DNA of 63,103 nt, filler included, from Licmophora abbreviata (GCA_900291995.1; 5 parts of 5 records of this genome joined end to end with filler, not necessarily neighbours in it); one strand, 5' to 3'. Shown: positions 7,023 through 53,812, numbered from the whole stretch's first letter. The notes: generated by a model from the letters alone, not told the origin. Translations and numbers: made by a program.

Positions 7023-7622
7023 TTAGTTGGGGAAGAAGTTCTCCACATTTCCGAGCTTGTCGTGGACCATGAGGCCCAACAAGCCCATCTGGGCGGCGCG
7101 GCCCTGGTTGAGCTCGATGGCACGCTTGGAAAGCTTGGTCTCCTCGTCGAACGAGTCCCAGCCGAAGTCGATGAATCCGTTTCGGAAGTCACCAATGAAC
7201 TCTCCGTCTCCTTGAACATCCTTCATGACGGCGATTTCCAGGAAGCCAACGAAAGCAAGGACCTGGAGGGCGCCCGCGACAGGAACAGCAAAGCTAGCGT
7301 CCCACCCGTAGCCAAGGTCGGAGAACTTGGTTCCGGAGTAGTCAATGTTTCCAGGAAGGTAGATTCCGGCAGCGTTGACCAAATATCCGACAACTCCAAG
7401 CATGCAGATACGTCCGTGCTTAAGCTCGACGAATCGAAGGCGGTCGAACTTCTCCTGATCACCGTCGGCCATGAGGTTGAGTGGATCGAAGAATCCAAGC
7501 GGAGGCTGGGCGCCGAGCTCGTCCTCGAAGCTCATCTGCAAGGAGGAGGAACGGACGGTGCTCTTGGAGGGAGCAAAGGCGGCGGCGCCGGCAATAAGGG
7601 AGGCAATAAGGGCAAGCTTCAT
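7023..7622 (-). CDS. Fucoxanthin-chlorophyll a/c binding protein (Lhcf family)
   Basis: Signal peptide + AAAFAP, AQPPLGFFDPL, ELKHGRICML, ELNQGRAAQMG. Confidence 0.97.
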   Translation of the reverse strand: MKLALIASLIAGAAAFAPSKSTVRSSSLQMSFEDELGAQPPLGFFDPLNLMADGDQEKFDRLRFVELKHGRICMLGVVGYLVNAAGIYLPGNIDYSGTKFSDLGYGWDASFAVPVAGALQVLAFVGFLEIAVMKDVQGDGEFIGDFRNGFIDFGWDSFDEETKLSKRAIELNQGRAAQMGLLGLMVHDKLGNVENFFPN

Positions 7623-7945
7623 CTTGGTCTATCTTGACGTTGGTTGGATTACGAGAAGGTGAGGTATGACGCCGATATCTCTTGAAATGTTTGTTATTTG
7701 TTCGCCTTTGGGAACGGAATCCAATCTCGCGATCTTCCCACTTCAACTAAAATTGAAAATGACAGCTTTGGGCCATGAGCCATCATCTCTCACCGCCACC
7801 GATTTGGAACACCTTTTTTCGTCTAGCTGCGCGCGCCAAACGAGAGCAATCGAAATCGTTCGCCTGATGTGCTGCTGTGCTGTGATGCACTGATGTATTG
7901 CAGATCTTGTACTACGAAGGTCGAAGGTAGTCCATTGCAAGAACA

Positions 7946-10331
7946 ATGAATGTACAGAGGAGAGGTGATGCGACGATATACTGCCTGTCGTCAGGACCGA
8001 CGTTGCCGGAGTGGCTCGGCGAGAGAGCCCGAAGAAATGTGTCCAAACGCGACGAGTCCATCAGACGTCGCGTCGAGCTTATCCAGGACTTTCAGATGCC
8101 CTCATCATCCGTCAAAAATAGCACAATCAAAGGATGGGCGCTACTTGATTGCTGCGGGAACTTATCCGCCGAGGATTCGGTGCTACGACGTGCACGACCT
8201 AACCATGAAGTTCGAGAGATATGTGAATTCACATGTCCAAGACATTGCCATGCTCGGAGAAGACTACGGGAAGCTTGCCTTGTTGCTTGAGGATAGGACA
8301 ATTGCTTTTCATGCCCCGTATGGAGCACACGAGTCGATCCGTATACCCACGTTTGGTAGGGGAATGGCTTATGAACCTTCGACATGCGAGCTTCTACTGG
8401 CTGCCAAAGGAAGTCATCTGTACCGTCTCAATTTGGACGAAGGTCGATTCAGCGACCCTTGGATGTTTGAACCTTCAAAAGCTTCATCATCGTGTATCGC
8501 AGTCGGACCTACGCACCCACTGGCGGCTGTTGGTTGCGATGATGGCATTGTTCGGTTCTGGGACAACAGATCTCCGGATACACTTCTCCGACCCTTCTTA
8601 ACCTTGGACGTACACGGTGCAACCTCAGGCTATGGATATGCCGACGACGGAGGGCGTTTTACGAATCTTGCTGAGATTACCTGCATAGCTCATGAACCCA
8701 GTGGTCTCTATATGGCGGCGGGAACAGCTGGAGGCTTGGTGGCTCTTTATGATGTGCGATCGAGCCGGCCGATTCACATCATGGAACACAAACGTGGCAT
8801 GCCTATTCACACGGTCAAGTTTCATTCTGGAAGCGGCTGCATTCTAAGCTCGGACGAGAAACTCGTTAAGGCATGGAGATATAGGTCATCAGGTGATACA
8901 AGTGGACCGGCGGCCAATGATAATGGGGGCTCCATCGGCTCTGTCTTGTGCAACGTCGAAGGGGCAGGCAAATTCTCTCACTTTGTGACGGCCGGCGATG
9001 AAGCCGACCCCTTTGGCAATCGCAGCGGTCTCCTCCTCTGTGCGACTGATCAACCAAAAATAGAATCGTTTTATGTTCCAGCCATGGGCTTGGCGCCCAA
9101 GTGGTGCTCCTTCTTGGAGAACATTACGGAAGAATTGGAGGAACGAGACTTGGCACGAGACGGCAAGACGTCTTCTGCGAGCGACCTTGTCCAAAATGGC
9201 GAAGAGGCGATCTACGAGAATTACAAATTTGTTAGTCGCGACGAAGTTGAAAAGCTGGGCATCTCAAACTTGGTTGGAACACCGCTTCTTCGGGGCTATA
9301 TGCATGGATTCTTTATGGACATTAACTTCTACAACAAGGTCCGCGCCGTGGCCAATCCATTCGAATATGAGGAATACCGCAAGAAGAAGCTCAAGGAGAA
9401 GCTGGACGCCAAGAGGGCTAGCCGAATTGCTCCAAAGCCGAGTAAATTTTCCAAACGCGCCGTTAACCCTGAGCTGGCGACAAGACTCACCGACAAGGCT
9501 GCGGACAGCACGAGGACTGGGAAGGTAGCAAAGGAGATCTTAACTGACGACCGCTTCGGAGGGTTGTTTACCAATCCCGACTATCAGATTGACGAAGAAG
9601 ACGAAAACTTCAAATTGCGTAATCCCAGTGGTGTGGCGGCTTCAAAGAGGAGACGGAACGACCTCGACAGCGACGAGGACGGATCGGAAAGCGACGACGA
9701 CGACGTTGATGCCGCAGGCTTTCAAAGAGTCGAAGAAGAGATCTATAGCGGGTCTGTCGAAAGAATCGAAAGCAGTGACGATGACGAAAGTGATAGTGAC
9801 GATGATGGTTTTCGCGGTGGAAAGGTGAGTACTGGGCTACGAGGTTCAATGTTTACGATTCAGGGGCTTACTTCACGCGTTCGTTTATCATGTCAGGTTC
9901 GAGGAGAAATGTATGGTCAAATGCGGCCAACGAAGCAGGCCAGCAAGGATAGAAAGAAGGAACCTCGCACTAAGAAGACGAAGCCTACTCGAAGACCGAT
10001 CATGTACGAGACTAACAACGCCGGCGATATATTGGATGTTGGTATCGATGCCGCGACTGCCGCACGGTCCAAGCGCCAAGCCGAAATGAACATGTCACTC
10101 GAGGAGCTGGTGGCACTTAAGAAACGTGAGCAATCCAGTATTGGGGCACAGACGACGGTGCGTACAGGAGAAGGGGTTTCACGAGAGACATCCTTCATCC
10201 CCCGCGATGTGCTGAGGCAGCGAGAAAAAGAAGTGGATCATGCTGGAACTGGCAAAGATCACAAGCGAGGAAGGAATCGGCGAGGCGTAAAAGATCTGGG
10301 TTTCAAGACTCCATTCAAGAAGACTCGATAA
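7946..10331 (+). CDS. NOL10: Nucleolar protein 10 / Enp2 (WD40, SSU processome); apparent 1-nt frameshift near 8115
   Basis: IYCLSSGPTLPEWL...RRRVELIQDFQMP joins, after a frameshift, to SKDGRYLIAAGTYPPRIRCYD...KFER; LGLAPKW-like GLAPKWCSFLENITEELEE, YMHGFFMD, NPFEYEEYR, DDRFGGLFTNPDYQIDE. Intron at about 9825-9896. Confidence 0.93.
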
Positions 10332-10524
10332 TGTAGGAAAGACTAATAGACGATCTTAGAACTGGCATCCTGTAACTGTACCGCATCATATACCGTGCAT
10401 TCGTCATTCACATTCCTTGCGTGTCAAAGATCGGTGCTGCAATACTTCCTTCAAGAAAACTCGATTGTGTGCGAAAGATTGATAGACGACCTCTACAAAG
10501 AATATCGTCGCTGCGCAGCACATC

Positions 10525-12342
10525 TTATACCGTGTATTGGCCATCCATATTCCTTGCGTATCCAATACCCGGGGTTCCAAACAGGACTCTGCTGCTGAGT
10601 ACACCGTCAATCATTGTCACTTCCTTCTGGAGAGACTTCAAGCTAATCGTCTCCGCGTCCTGTGTGTGCGGGTCAATGTCAAGCACGTTGTAAGCGATAT
10701 TTCCCCGACTCTGGTTGATTTGCTGAACAATGTTGATATGCGCCTTGGCGAAGGCGTCTGTGATACGGGCAAGAACGCCAGGAACGTTCTTGTTTACGAC
10801 TGTAATTCGGATGGTCTTGTCGGGACGCACAGGGAGAGAAGTTTCAGGAAAGTTAACCGAGTTGCGAATGGTTCCAGTCTCCATAAAATCGCGGATGGTA
10901 TCGGCCGCCATGGACGCCTGATGAGCGAGCCGACGAGAGAAATATACGGGATGAGGCGATGATCTGTCACTCAATAAACGGTGTATCATTGAGGAGCCAC
11001 TGACTTACCGCCGAGTCTTCGGCTTCTCCCGTGGAAGCCCCCAAGTGGGGAAGAATGACTGCGTTCTTGTGATCCCAGAGCTCGTCGTCAGGAAAGTCTG
11101 ACACATAGCGCCCATCACCGCGATCCAGGAAGGTCTTCATGGCAGAAGAGTCGACCAACTCACCACGGGCAAAGTTGAGAAGAACTGCACCGTCCTTGAA
11201 GTGCGAAATGATGTCTTTTCCAACGATGCCGTGCGTGCCACCGTCTTCTGGTGATCCCTTGATGTAGGGAATATTCAGACTGATGTAATCCGCACCCGAT
11301 ACAGCAGAGGCAATAGAATCTTCCAGGCGCATTTCCCTTGGAAGTTTGAGCGCACTGGAAATGGAGAGACCAGGATCGTATCCAACGATGTTCATGCCTA
11401 ATGCCGAGGCGTCACGTGCTGTCGACGCCCCGATATGGCCCAATCCAATAATTGCGAGGGTCTTGCCAGTGATTTCTCTTCCAGTAAAGAGAGATTTGTC
11501 CTTCTCGACCCTTTCTCGTGCCACACCCTGTTCTCCTAGTCCTTTCATGTGGTTGATTCCGTCGATGATACCCCGACTGCCGAGCAGCAGACCACAAACG
11601 ATGAGCTCCTTGACAGCATTCGCGTTGGCACCAGGAGTATTGAATACGGGGATGCCGAGTTCCGTCATGCGAGCCACAGGAATGTTGTTGGTGCCGGCAC
11701 CGCAGCGTGCAATGCAGCGAACGGTGAGATGAACTTCTTCTTCCTGGAGTTTATGGGAACGCAACATCAAGGCGTGCGCATTGATGGCTTTGCCATCCGA
11801 TGGCTCGACAGTGTACAAGTCCGCCGGAAACCGCGCCAGTCCCTAGTTGTATGGAGCAAATCGACGAATGAAGAAGGTGTGAGCTCAAAGATTTCATGCG
11901 CATGTGTGATACATGCAGAACTGTTCGACTCGAGCGAGACATGCCAGCGGTCAGGATCTGTGAATCAACACAGACAAAACCTAGCCATCAATCCTCGTTC
12001 GAGCCATCACGTGATTTAGTATTCGTGGGCTAAGCGATCGGCAGATGTGGACCATTTCGAGTCTGAAGATTATTAATCCCACGCTTCTAAGCTCATACAA
12101 TAGAGAAACATCGATGGAACACTCACCTTGGGCGAAATCTTGTTGATGGTCCTGGTATTGTACTTTCCTGGCTGTGTGAAGTCACTTATGTCTTCGATGT
12201 TCCATCCGCTCACGTAGTGGTCCACGTCAACCGGAATGGTCAAGCGGCGCGTTGTTGTTGCCAGACATGGTCTCGCCAAGCGAAGATTCTGGCGAGCTGC
12301 CAGTCTGCAGAGCGTCATGGTCGTCGTCGTCGTCAACATCAT
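10525..12342 (-). CDS. PHGDH: D-3-phosphoglycerate dehydrogenase (SerA-like, C-terminal ACT domain), copy 1, probable mitochondrial presequence
   Basis: ARCGAGTNNIPV, FNTPGANANAVKEL, GLGHIG, NFARGELV, PHLGASTGEAE, ACT-like VVNKNVPGVLARIT. Introns after ISPK and after EDSA. Confidence 0.88.
11607..11714. repeat. Left arm of 108-bp inverted repeat (partner 13056-13163)
   Basis: Base-by-base comparison by eye: reverse complement matches 13056-13163 with 2 mismatches. Confidence 0.9.
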
Positions 12343-12714
12343 GTTCAAAGTGTGTTTGTCAATGACGAAGCGGGGGAAATTCGAAGCTGCGGATTTGGTG
12401 GCGCGCGTCTGGCTGGCAACCGATAAAGACCCACCACAGCCGTCCATTTTCCGTGACGTGGATGGGAACCGTATTCTACCAATGAAAACGTTCTGAAATT
12501 TCAGCCCTCTCAGCACGTGACGCATCGATGACGCGCGCCGCTTTTTCGTTCGCCCACTCATTGATGGTTGGCATGGAAAGCATCATCAGCCACCTCCGAC
12601 GTTCAGTTTGTGGCCTCGAGAGACATGCGTATTCGGCTTTGTCCAGAACGGCTGCTCCTCCTCACGGCATCCTTACTCTGTTTCTCTCTTGCTTCTGGAC
12701 TCCTTGAAACAACT

Positions 12715-14399
12715 ATGCTTTCGGCCAGGATTTCCTCGCTGGCTTTCAAAGCCCGCCGCTTGTCGCCGCACCGCGAATCTTTCGCCGGAGCTCTCGCTAG
12801 TACGACACGTACTATGGCAGACATTTCCGTTGAACATGGCCGCGGAGAGTGGAAACTGTACGGTGACTTGGCAAACTACAAACCTGGAAAATTCCAGATC
12901 AAAACCTTTAACAAGATTTCCCCAAAGGGACTTGAGCAGTTTCCCAAGGAAGACTACGACGTTCGAACTGGCGACGAAGAAGCGGCCAATGCTCACGCCA
13001 TTCTCTTGCGTTCGCATAAACTGCAAGAGGAGGAAGTCGCTCATACAGTACGTGCCATTGCACGCTGCGGCGCCGGCACCAACAACATTCCTGTGGCTCG
13101 CATGACGGAACTCGGCATCCCCGTATTCAATACACCTGGTGCCAACGCGAATGCTGTCAAGGAACTAGTTCTCTGTGGAATGTTACTGGCAAGTCGACGT
13201 ATTGTCGATGGAGTCAACCATATGAAGGATCTTGGACAGCAGGGACTCGCGAGGGAACGTGTTGAAAAGGATAAAGCCATGTTTGGCGGACAGGAACTTG
13301 CCGGCAAGACGCTCGCTGTAATTGGACTCGGTACGTGCTGTTTGTTTGTGGCTGTTTGCTTTTGCTTGGGTTTGTGCACTGAAGCAGTTTCACTGTACTT
13401 CGCTCGACCATTTATGCTCCCAAATGATTCACTAATTTGTTTTTGTAATTGTAATTGTATTTTTATCGTGGTTAAGGCCATATTGGATCCTTGACGGCAC
13501 GAGATGCGTACAGTCTCGGCATGAAGCTAACAGGTACGAGTCGAGAGCTGAAGGCCGTCCATGGATTTCTGCAAGCGCTATAGACTGAAGGTTCTCGACG
13601 GAACACTGTGCGCTCACTTTTCCTCCTATTCTTGTCTATTTTAGGATACGATCCTGGTCTTTCGGTTCAGAATGCCCTCAAGCTGCCCCGGTCGTTGAGC
13701 CTTGCGGATTCCATTACTGCTGCCGTTGCCAACGCTGATTACATCTCTCTCAACATGCCATACATCAAGGGCGAAGGAGGCACCCACGGAATTATCAACA
13801 AGGCTGTCATTGAACACTTCAAGCCAAATGCGGTCTTGCTTAACTTTGCTCGTGGCGAGCTGGTAAATTCCGAAGACATGAAGGAATTCCTAGATGAAGG
13901 CGACGGTCGTTACGTGTCGGACTTTCCTGACGATCTTCTTTGGGATCATAAGAACTCCATTATTCTACCTCACCTCGGAGCGTCGACGGGAGAAGCAGAG
14001 GATGCCGCTGCCTCCATGGCAGCAGACACAATTTGTGACTTTCTTGAAACTGGAGCGATTCGAAACTCCGTCAACTTTCCCGACACACAGCTGCTCGACA
14101 AGCCCGAGGGTGCCGTTCGTTTCGCTGTGGTGAACAAGAATAAGTCTGGTATGCTTGCCAATATCATGGATGTATTTGCACGAGAAAATGTCAACATTCT
14201 GCAGCAGATCAACCACTCGCGAGGGGGCATTGCGTACAACGTCCTGGACGTGGAATCATCTACTCGAAACGACGTGCTTTGTTTCAAAGACATCCAGGAA
14301 AAGATAACGATGTTGGAAGGTGTCGTGAGCAGTCGCCTCATTTATGGTATGCCTGGAACTGGCTACGCTCGAAACCTTGAAGGAGAGTACTTTGTATAA
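12715..14399 (+). CDS. PHGDH: D-3-phosphoglycerate dehydrogenase (SerA-like, ACT domain), copy 2, probable mitochondrial presequence
   Basis: MLSARISSLAFKARRLS leader; same motifs as copy 1; three exons with a short middle exon (GHIGSLTARDAYSLGMKLT). Confidence 0.88.
13056..13163. repeat. Right arm of 108-bp inverted repeat (partner 11607-11714)
   Basis: CATTGCACGCTGCGG...GCTGTCAAGGA, 106/108 identical to the reverse complement of the left arm. Confidence 0.9.
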
Positions 14400-14735: not shown

Positions 14736-15311
14736 TTACGAGCGGCCGTCGTAGCTCTTCTGTTCGTCGCTCTTGCCACTGAAATCGTACTTGGTCTTGA
14801 CCATGTTGTGGCCCTTGGTTGCCGAGTTGACCCACTTCTGATCCAGGTTTGTTCCACGCTTCAGATACCAGTCGGTGAAGTCAATGAACTTACCGGCCTT
14901 GGCCACGTTCTTCTTGTAGTTTTCGTCCTTCTTCTTCTGGTCACTAGAGCGGATCTTCTCGTACTGTTGACGGCTCAAGCCCGCTGGAACATAGGAGTTG
15001 TTTGAGAGTTTTCCTTGCTTCAACTGTTTCAATCAACCATCGTGGAAAGACAATTAGTCGTGGAAGAGTAATAGGACGAGACGTTCATGGTTGATTACAG
15101 TACTTACGTTTTTCTTGGAACGAGCCCCGTAGTTGTTCACAGTCGGGTTCGGAGCAAACAGATCCATGCCGAAGACGGTCTCGAAAAACGGCTTGGTCTC
15201 CTCCGCTGACTTCTTCGCCGCCAGCTCCATTCCGACACGGGAGCTCACAGGGGCCGGGGCGAATGCCGCGGCCGTAGCCAGGGAAGCAACAAGAACGGCA
15301 ACAGTCTTCAT
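14736..15311 (-). CDS. Small basic plastid-targeted protein of unknown function, 2 exons
   Basis: MKTVAVLVASLATAAAFAP bipartite leader; GTAAGT...CAG intron (~15107-15024) joins to LKQGKLSNNSYVPAGLSRQQYEKIR. Confidence 0.8.
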
Positions 15312-15896
15312 CTTTGCTCAACTTTACGAGAAACTTTGTGGTGTCACCTGTGCTTCCGTCGCCATTCTGGATTCTGGTGACGTGGGAGATTTTCTACGCT
15401 TGATCTACGTATCCCTCGTACCAAAACTTGAAGTTCGAGGTTGAAGCGGTATCTTTTCTACAACAGAATGCGAGTTACGAGTCGAGTGGGTCAAGTCAAG
15501 ATTCAGAGATGTAGTCTGCTGACAGACATGCAGACGCCTATCCAGTCAATCGATGAAGTCAACAATCAATCAGTCGATCCTCTGCGCCTGGCAAGCCTTT
15601 CCTCCGTGTCGTTGTCCTCGATAGAGATTAAACTCACTCGTCCTTCGAGTAGCTAGCTTGTAGGGGACTGAAGGATAGGACCGACGGTATACTACTAGCT
15701 GTACTATGCACTGTTGTACTCAAGACATACATAGGTGGTAGCTTTACTATTTACATCCGACACACAATTGTACATTAGTCATCGTGCCAAGAACTACCTT
15801 CTGTTGGATCCTCGATCAACCCTCTTAGCTTGGAATACAGAGTGAATCTTTTGCACTGTCGCAACCGGAAAAATGAGCAATGCAAAAAGTGGGTTT

Positions 15897-20249: not shown

Positions 20250-20349
20250 NNNNNNNNNNNNNNNNNNNNNNNNNNNNNNNNNNNNNNNNNNNNTTAATTA
20301 ATTAANNNNNNNNNNNNNNNNNNNNNNNNNNNNNNNNNNNNNNNNNNNN
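20250..20349. other. Artificial contig spacer / assembly gap
   Basis: N44-TTAATTAATTAA-N44, stops in all six frames. Confidence 0.98.
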
Positions 20350-24564: not shown

Positions 24565-24664
24565 NNNNNNNNNNNNNNNNNNNNNNNNNNNNNNNNNNNN
24601 NNNNNNNNTTAATTAATTAANNNNNNNNNNNNNNNNNNNNNNNNNNNNNNNNNNNNNNNNNNNN
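24565..24664. other. Artificial contig spacer / assembly gap
   Basis: N44-TTAATTAATTAA-N44. Confidence 0.98.
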
Positions 24665-30731: not shown

Positions 30732-31512
30732 TCAATTAGCGGTATTACTGTTGGCTTGTAGATTGCGAGGCGGACGAAACAGCGACGTCATTGGGATGAG
30801 CTCGGGGCGGGGGAAGCCCCCGTCTCCTCGGGGAAGAGGCTCTGTCGCATTGTTCTTGTCGAACGGGTAGCACCACAGTACTATACGCTTAGACAGTTTN
30901 NNNNNNNNNNNNNNNNNNNNNNNNNNNNNNNNNNNNNNNNNNNTTAATTAATTAANNNNNNNNNNNNNNNNNNNNNNNNNNNNNNNNNNNNNNNNNNNNC
31001 AGTACTATACGCTTAGACAGTTTCGGTAGAAGTCGAAACTTTTTGACTGCCTGCACGCCCTCTTCCTGTTCGTCGTCCCGCTTTCGAGCTGGAAAGATAA
31101 GAGTAGCGCTCTGGTTGTGAGCCAAAGGAAGATCCTCGAGTCGATACGTAACTTGCAGGGTGTCTCCAAAAGCGTATCGAATCTCTTTCTTCGGCTTTTC
31201 AGACTTGTGTGGTGCGATAGACTGCTGAGTTTTGCCCCGTTTGTTTCTTCCCGTTGTCTTCGTCTTGCTGACGTTTTTGCATCCCGTGTCATCACTTGGT
31301 GGTCGCAATCGTCCCTGATGAACCTCAAGGTACTTTTCAATTTCCTCGCCGCACTCTCTCGGAAATATCTGCGAGCCCAGCAGATCCAAGAGCTCTCGTC
31401 GGAGCTCCGGAGAAGAGTGAAACCACTGTTGATCGACCTTCCGGAGATACACTACGACTTCCGCGAGATGCGTCTTGCCGACGCGCACTTCCGAATACGT
31501 CCGTGTGCTCAT
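30732..31512 (-). CDS. Hypothetical protein, weakly SLX4IP-like; spans a closable gap
   Basis: ORF continues in frame across the spacer via a 24-nt flank overlap: ...KRIVLWCYPFDKNNATEP...NTAN*. Confidence 0.65.
30900..30999. other. Artificial contig spacer; flanks overlap by 24 nt
   Basis: CAGTACTATACGCTTAGACAGTTT at 30876-30899 and 31000-31023. Confidence 0.98.
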
Positions 31513-52599: not shown

Positions 52600-53812
52600 C
52601 TACTCGCTCTCTGCTTGTCGCTTTTGCTTCATCTTGAGTCCTTCTTCGGGGTGCGTCAGACTGGAGTTANNNNNNNNNNNNNNNNNNNNNNNNNNNNNNN
52701 NNNNNNNNNNNNNTTAATTAATTAANNNNNNNNNNNNNNNNNNNNNNNNNNNNNNNNNNNNNNNNNNNNCCTTGTCCTTGCACGTCGCCGGCGTCCTTCG
52801 TGTCGCGCGGGAAGTACTCCTCGTCACGCAATTCCATGTCTTCATAGAGTTCCTCGTCTGTTGCTAGCTGCTTGAAATCCTTGCTGCACTCGAGGGCATG
52901 AACCGCTGCAAGTTCCGCCCGATCGATGGCTGAATCGGCAATGGTCGCGACCTCGTCCGCCGTCAGGGCGCGCACCTTCTTGGCCGGCGATCCAGCCCAC
53001 AACTCGCCGCTCTTGACGGTCGTACCTGGTGTCACCATGGCACCTGGTTCCAGTATGGAGTGAGACTCAATAGTGGCACCATCCATGACTTGTACCGATG
53101 CGCCAATCACGACATCGTTCTGAATAGTAGCGGCGTGAATCAAGGCGCAGGGTCCGATCGTTACATTGCTGCCAATGGAGGTGGCAAAGTCTCCTTGGAT
53201 CTTGGCCACATGGACGACAGCACGGTCTCCAATGTTGGTATTGTCTCCAATCGTCACCTTGTTTACATCTCCTCGCACCGTCGCTCCGTACCAGACACTG
53301 CGACAGAAAACAAATAAAATTCATGGAGAGCGTGAGTGAAAAAGGCAGGTAGCTACAGCCAAATTGTTGTTATTGTATCACCACTCCAAATACTGCACGT
53401 ACCTGCTATTCTTGCCAATACTAACATCGCCAATTATGGAAGCCGACGGCGCCACAAACGTAGCGACTTGACTGACGACGGGCGCGACGCCATCGACAGC
53501 GACAAATCGAGTCGAAGGTACGAGCCGCTCCGTGTACTTGGCCACTTCCATATTTTTGCCCATACTGTCCAACATGGCGCTGTCAAAGAAACAAGGATAA
53601 AAAGTGAAAAGATTAGAAGTTTTCTAGTGTGAGATGTCAGATCGCTGCAGTTCGGCAGGAACAGTACACTCCACCAGCGCCCATCAGCGTACAAAGAGTA
53701 TGGATTCTTACGCGCGACACCCCCCCCAATCGAGAGACACGTCTTGCACTTACCCCATTCGTCTGGCGGCCGACGACGCAGCCAAAACTGCTCGTGCACC
53801 AATCGATGTCAT
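52600..53812 (-). CDS. Gamma carbonic anhydrase-like protein, mitochondrial (likely complex I CA module); interrupted by gap
   Basis: FVAPSASIIGDVSIG, VWYGATVRGDVN, IGDNTNIGD hexapeptide repeats, WAGSPAKKVR; tail NSSLTHPEEGLKMKQKRQAESE* lies left of the spacer. Confidence 0.88.
52670..52769. other. Artificial contig spacer / assembly gap
   Basis: N44-TTAATTAATTAA-N44. Confidence 0.98.

Follow-up and report, generated by a model that had tools for sequence, protein, structure and literature searches.

How do two old paralogous genes, diverged over most of their length, come to share a stretch of coding sequence that is nearly identical down to its silent positions? The question is raised by a pair of PHGDH genes, here called A and B, that lie head-to-head in DNA of the diatom Licmophora abbreviata (GCA_900291995.1). 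The stretch analysed, 63,103 nucleotides (nt) of joined contigs including filler, is referred to as the window. An initial annotation of this DNA had drawn attention to a near-perfect inverted repeat between the two genes and read it as the trace of a recent local gene conversion, or more speculatively as the arms of a switch resembling phase variation. The shared patch is very probably the product of recent ectopic (interlocus) gene conversion between ancient, adjacent and inverted paralogues, in which such conversion recurs and leads to mosaic concerted evolution. The pair is old, it is adjacent in several diatoms, and lineages differ in where it has been locally homogenised.

Alignment of the two arms reproduced the 108 nt, the two differences and the 62-nt perfect core given in the initial annotation, as well as the common codon phase of the inverted arms (Table 1). 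The differences, at 11699/13071 (a Gly codon) and 11636/13134 (a Thr codon), are both at synonymous third positions and divide the arms into perfect runs of 15, 62 and 29 nt; mismatches at 11715/13055 and 11606/13164 form the edges. The arms belong to the sole inverted repeats found in the window (at least 30 nt, 14-nt seed), and their sequence occurs at two places only in the source assembly, G000. Beside the patch, the stretch LRSHKLQEEEV has six synonymous differences in 11 codons, as had been reported, and the flanks of the arms are about 68–69% identical between A and B. Synonymous-informative codons are identical in 32 of 34 cases inside the patch vs. 110 of 260 outside, and the proportion of synonymous differences (pS) is 0.074 inside vs. 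a saturated 0.78 outside, which is the local drop in synonymous divergence foreseen by the initial annotation. The expected number of differences inside is 19.9, and the probability of observing two or fewer is about 6e-12 for a patch chosen post hoc. The longest identical run, 19 codons, was attained in 9 of 100,000 shuffles, and 34-codon windows with two or fewer differences were not found in 20,000 shuffles (minimum five).

Table 1. Coordinates of the PHGDH pair, the inverted arms and the neighbouring genes, counted from the first nucleotide of the window.
Feature	Position	Strand	Remarks
PHGDH paralogue A	10525..12318	(-)	472 amino acids (aa); spliced open frame; exons 12318-12127, 11842-11009, 10917-10525
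PHGDH paralogue B	12715..14399	(+)	475 aa; spliced open frame; exons 12715-13330, 13477-13533, 13645-14399
Intergenic gap, presumed bidirectional promoter	12319..12714	.	396 nt between start codons; suggested by the divergent arrangement
Left arm, probable converted tract in A exon 2	11607..11714	(-)	108 nt; A residues ~108-142
Right arm, probable converted tract in B exon 1	13056..13163	(+)	108 nt
62-nt perfect core, A copy	11637..11698	(-)	From arm alignment
62-nt perfect core, B copy	13072..13133	(+)	From arm alignment
Segment between arms, which would be inverted by a crossover	11715..13055	.	1341 nt
Neighbour: light-harvesting protein	7023-7628	(-)	
Neighbour: NOL10-like nucleolar protein	7950-10331	(+)	
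Neighbour: small two-exon gene, signal-peptide-like start	14736-15317	(-)	No Pfam match in exon scanned

No other stretch of the PHGDH family is as conserved as the one encoded by the patch, a coincidence that counts for selection on the nucleotides themselves, through RNA structure, codon choice or a regulatory element, as what keeps the two copies identical. From 78 metagenome loci collected, 70 gene copies including the two of the window were kept; one locus present twice, the distant loci L057, L060 and L073-L084, and copies in which few codons could be mapped were set aside. The between-locus control comprised 2343 of 2372 pairs, the remaining 29 being near-identical. Synonymous identity between loci was 0.380 inside the patch vs. 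0.379 outside, with a maximum of 0.72 and a longest run of 13 codons, and the A/B pair of the window, with a synonymous identity of 0.94 and its run of 19 codons, lies above every between-locus pair. As silent sites in the patch are no more conserved between species than those outside, protein or synonymous constraint is ruled out, and the argument of the initial annotation that protein constraint cannot explain the third positions is borne out. The RNA folding energy of the patch was likewise no better than that of shuffles (z of +0.99 and +1.18). Selection at the nucleotide level was rejected on the between-locus control together with folding; it would survive only for an element unique to the species and is hardly credible.

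Both genes have a leader (Arg-rich in A), the catalytic and NAD-binding domains of a 2-hydroxyacid dehydrogenase and a C-terminal ACT domain, in the same order. Pfam matches are PF00389, PF02826 and PF01842/PF22629 for A, and PF00389, PF02826 and a weak ACT match, below the curated cut-off, for B. The closest solved structures are D-3-phosphoglycerate dehydrogenases, and among homologues with a name the nearest come from diatoms. A and B thus have the domain content of a D-3-phosphoglycerate dehydrogenase with a C-terminal ACT domain, and by homology are predicted to act on 3-phosphoglycerate. The head-to-head PHGDH pair of the initial annotation is therefore upheld by spliced frames, domains and solved relatives, and so are its differing intron positions (after alignment codons 73 and 351 in A vs. 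208 and 227 in B). The presequences, described there as unrelated, turn out to be weakly alike: the leaders are 38% identical over 26 aligned residues, both are rich in Arg and Lys and nearly free of acidic residues, and the mature N-termini are homologous. The leaders resemble mitochondrial presequences, and a mitochondrial location is suggested by their composition and by the prediction that diatom PGDH is mitochondrial, as part of the stramenopile phosphorylated serine pathway (PMC5715807). A swap of leaders between A and B would therefore probably leave the compartment unchanged. The intergenic gap contains one CACGTG and several TGACG motifs, the latter also present in the gap of the metagenome locus L056 (a comparison made without a control), and the 8-mers common to four intergenic gaps are scattered (again without a control).

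Two types of diatom homologue can be distinguished by their N-terminus and ACT region. A 51-row tree of the protein ends (named taxa, the paired loci and some near relatives without a name; rooted at the midpoint only) splits the A copies, gene A of the window among them, from the B clade at a support of 97/96, and the B clade holds gene B of the window, centric as well as pennate diatoms and two unassigned basal rows. Because A and B separate in this way, with centric and pennate diatoms together in the B clade, the duplication is old, as the initial annotation had supposed. It is also older than the tract, given that the flanks follow the paralogue and not the species in this midpoint-rooted tree. 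The accessions of A and B directly follow one another in Nitzschia inconspicua (both haplotypes; e.g., KAG7356922/3) and Cylindrotheca closterium (CAJ1959211/2), and five distinct metagenome contigs carry both full copies, head-to-head in L056, L066 and L069 and in tandem in L007 and L054 (L055 repeats L054 and was counted once). The pair is also in tandem in L065. As the genes are in tandem in some diatoms and, as in the window, head-to-head in others, one whole gene has changed orientation with the pair still adjacent. Seminavis robusta has two B-type copies, P0090 and P0207, on different scaffolds, and no A-type copy among the matches listed. Both copies of L056 and L069 have a phase-2 intron at alignment codon 119, where the conserved patch starts; L054 has it in B alone, and the window, L007 and L066 lack it in both copies. 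This concordance between paralogues is suggestive only.

Other diatoms have homogenised patches as well. In L056 the copies are 92% identical over 375 nt, with a perfect run of 97 nt that begins at an exon boundary and overlaps the patch of the window, and L066 has 62 perfect nt at codons 323–342. In L010 (A) and L019 (B), separately assembled intron-free transcript contigs, 63 of 64 codons are identical at 292–355. The patches thus occupy codons 117–151 in the window, 119–212 in L056, 323–342 in L066 and 291–356 in L010/L019. The suggestion that related diatoms might show the same homogenised patch therefore holds as far as recurrence is concerned, mostly not as to position. When A copies were compared with B copies (810 comparisons), the longest four exact runs (133, 97, 62 and 62 nt) were together those of the window, L056, L066 and L010/L019; the next longest is 39 nt and the 99th percentile 31. 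There is no exact A/B run above 23 nt in L069, L007 or L054. In a quick core tree, mostly unresolved, the paralogues of one organism are sisters in two cases, L069 (support 98) and P0003/P0048 (92), which would fit an older homogenisation. With the window left out, patches are present in two of three head-to-head vs. none of two tandem loci, numbers too small to judge an effect of orientation. The recent local conversion proposed in the initial annotation is thus well supported by the between-species control, the lack of an outstanding RNA fold and the recurrence of patches.

It is conceivable that a short-read assembler or polisher simply merged the two most similar stretches of the pair. The source assembly is fragmented (7734 contigs) and probably a metagenome bin, and arm B is without a same-organism contig among the pieces listed, at a depth of about 2. 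None of the public sequencing runs contained more than 0.15 of the words of the locus, no RNA run was listed among those containing any, and four runs were examined as contigs at that depth. The coverage of arm A comes from two other studies: a contig of 163 nt (X2) over 11551-11713 has no differences and one of 151 nt (X8) over 11689-11839 has one difference. Together they carry the A alleles at both diagnostic sites, the A flanks and the assembled orientation, and so support arm A and both its flanks independently. The arms differ at two synonymous sites, so that neither is a plain copy of the other, and at about 68–69% identity the flanks lack the long common words that a collapse would need, as reasoned from the formation of de Bruijn bubbles. 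The separately assembled transcripts L010/L019, from another diatom, have a patch of their own, and homogenisation is visible at the protein level in the core tree. A collapse of the arms is unlikely, given the differences between them and the identity of only about 68% in their flanks, and an artefact of assembly or polishing is a quite improbable source of the patch.

Gene conversion could proceed as follows. Purifying selection would keep the catalytic core similar enough to act as a seed. When one copy suffers a break, it would be repaired from the other, 1.3 kb away, with pairing by fold-back, and a short tract would be copied without crossover. The converted copy would survive because the protein there is nearly invariant and the paralogues are interchangeable, while a conversion that reached the paralogue-specific N-terminus or ACT domain would be removed by selection or would not succeed for want of homology. 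The two differences may have arisen by later mutation or may mark where overlapping tracts end, and the patch would need no function of its own. Conversion tracts in yeast and rodents span about 50 to several hundred bp (PMC3924818), and diatoms have a high rate of mitotic recombination, measured between homologues and not paralogues (10.1101/2020.11.08.373134). Several points speak against the conversion proposed here. The flanks, at about 68%, are below the level of about 80% identity where conversion mainly occurs, and 108 nt is less than a minimal efficient processing segment (MEPS) of about 200 bp (PMC3924818), so that single events are expected to be rare; at identities below 80%, or in stretches shorter than the MEPS, conversion does happen, slowly (PMC3924818). 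The donor copy could not be assigned, with a codon-usage log ratio of 0.29 and no close outgroup. L069 is head-to-head yet has no nucleotide patch, the comparison loci all come from short-read metagenome or transcript assemblies, and the missing coverage of arm B also counts here.

If such repair ended, in rare cases, in a crossover, the 1.3-kb segment between the arms would be inverted, and two chimeric open frames would arise as a by-product. This segment of 1341 nt comprises A exon 1, A intron 1, 128 nt of A exon 2, the 396-nt gap and the first 341 nt of B exon 1. The flip described in the initial annotation is thus right in size and in carrying the shared gap, and wrong in carrying both whole 5' exons, as B exon 1 is included only in part. 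Its geometry is otherwise correct, since in silico a crossover in the core yields products of 468 and 479 aa, both open frames without internal stops. The N- and C-terminal halves of both genes in the window are in the ancestral phase, as they are in all five distinct two-copy loci. A fixed past flip, or a mis-oriented assembly of the window, was rejected on the ground that the N and C halves agree in type.

Could inversion nevertheless be programmed? In-frame inverted repeats in head-to-head coding sequences are also found in bacterial inversions that alter genes (PMC9881135), where a recombinase usually lies nearby, although with exceptions (PMC9881135). As already stated in the initial annotation, no recombinase is visible near the pair: none was found among the 33 open reading frames (ORFs) of the window that were scanned (33/39 ORFs of at least 220 aa, leaving out the PHGDH frames and some overlapping ones and adding two shorter). 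The bin G000 does contain 13 tyrosine-recombinase and 4 resolvase matches, on contigs C2335, C4499, C2157, C2158, C7444 and others; C2158 has both kinds and C2573, the contig of the pair, none. These matches, which count for a switch, lie on other contigs and are possibly bacterial contamination. The position and sequence of the patch differ between lineages, unlike a recombinase target, and no sign of mixed orientations was seen in contigs of depth about 2. With the halves in ancestral phase and the assembled orientation seen in the few molecules at hand, the phase-variation switch of the initial annotation is unsupported, and a programmed, recombinase-driven switch is close to excluded.

A less demanding possibility is that conversion is accompanied by recurrent inversion without any recombinase, both orientations segregating in diatom populations and giving rise to chimeric A/B enzymes. 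It has a precedent in the flip/flop region of yeast, where some 4% of such conversions end in a crossover that inverts the spacer (PMC9731477), and both products in the window would be open frames. One lead comes from L043 (another diatom; L043:1-2067 vs. L056:2548-5712), which is about 97% identical to L056 and has intergenic DNA and the 5' part of A, with A's intron, joined to the 3' part of B and its downstream flank. Apart from one earlier site, the alleles of L043 switch once from A to B, between L056 positions 4517 and 4529. This flipped arrangement may equally well be a real inversion allele or a mis-join, as a shared tract also causes assemblers to mis-join. Among 199 proteins of 400–530 aa, 129 were B-B, 54 A-A, four A-B, none B-A and 12 ambiguous in type. 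The four with an A start and a B end (P0013, P0133, P0092 and P0094) come from three lineages, and for two of the three (P0092 and P0013) the join lies inside a stretch common to both paralogues, as mis-assembly and crossover both predict. The reciprocal form, with a B start and an A end, was found neither among the 199 proteins, including one search aimed at B starts, nor among the loci typed, and the missing reciprocals would fit mis-joins in transcript assembly better. In P0132, a record of 654 aa from Asterionellopsis glacialis, a B start is followed by an A start and then by a B end. This record and the four chimeric proteins are probably transcript mis-joins through shared patches. For the organism of the window no flipped joints were seen in contigs of depth about 2, all two-copy loci are in the ancestral phase, and the arms here, of 0.1–0.4 kb, are short in comparison with the yeast repeats of about 4 kb (PMC9731477). 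It is therefore doubtful that both orientations segregate. It is just as doubtful that A/B is a long-lived flip locus free of any recombinase, with L043 as one such allele, and that populations express chimeras which swap the leader, N-terminus and promoter against the NAD-binding/ACT half. Occasional inversion as a by-product of conversion, by analogy with the yeast region, may nevertheless take place.

If recent gene conversion is taken as the source of the patch, the locus exemplifies mosaic concerted evolution in a diatom, in an old enzyme pair whose members have remained neighbours across lineages. Trees of the PHGDH core can consequently mix paralogues, and transcript assemblies can join A to B through shared patches and create chimeric protein entries in databases. 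The N-terminus and the ACT domain never homogenise, which is a pointer to what differs between the A and B enzymes. Should flipped alleles such as L043 prove real, the pair would be an instance, in eukaryotes, of inversion that recurs within genes and shuffles the halves of enzymes.

As to the surroundings, the A/B locus lies wholly within the first contig of the window; runs of N at 20250-20349, 24565-24664, 30900-30999 and 52670-52769 mark where several contigs are joined. A direct repeat of 62 nt at 74% identity (10384-10445 and 10521-10582, 137 nt apart) has a second copy that overlaps the last codons of A and is possibly an old duplication of the gene end.

In the literature searched, which left most subscription papers and supplements outside, no report of the diatom PHGDH pair or of its patch was found. 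The mitochondrial phosphoglycerate dehydrogenase of stramenopiles has the same domain content and presequence-like leaders, and main-text passages of its description contain neither two adjacent diatom paralogues nor conversion between them (PMC5715807); the word stem 'duplicat' is absent from that main text. Bacterial gene-altering inversions, e.g., at hsdS, share with the diatom pair the in-frame inverted repeats in coding sequences on opposite strands; they are usually catalysed by a recombinase, frequent and represented by both variants in one population (PMC9881135), none of which is seen here. In the Saccharomyces chromosome XIV flip/flop region inverted repeats are likewise kept alike by conversion, and its authors read the recurrent inversion as a by-product of occasional crossover (PMC9731477). 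There, however, whole-gene repeats of about 4 kb surround 24 kb and both orientations are proven by long reads (PMC9731477), whereas the diatom arms are short and intragenic and a flip, here hypothetical, would make chimeric proteins. Mammalian BMP8A/B, DDX19A/B and TUBG1/2 are also long-lived pairs with some parts homogenised and others diverging, and BMP8A/B is inverted like the diatom pair; their tracts cover several exons and introns at more than 97% identity with conserved boundaries (PMC2720389), in contrast to the 60–400 nt and shifting boundaries found here. The homeobox genes Dlxa and Dlxb of Capitella teleta, and hexapod engrailed/invected cited there, are old, diverged, linked and inverted paralogues like A and B (PMC3199776). 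In the Capitella pair identity that includes silent sites is similarly limited to the most conserved part of the protein, and has been read as conversion driven by proximity (PMC3199776). The Capitella genes are transcription factors lying tail-to-tail with a tract that enters an intron (PMC3199776), whereas the diatom genes are head-to-head metabolic enzymes with a tract confined to exons and, unlike Capitella Dlx, a patch that moves between lineages.

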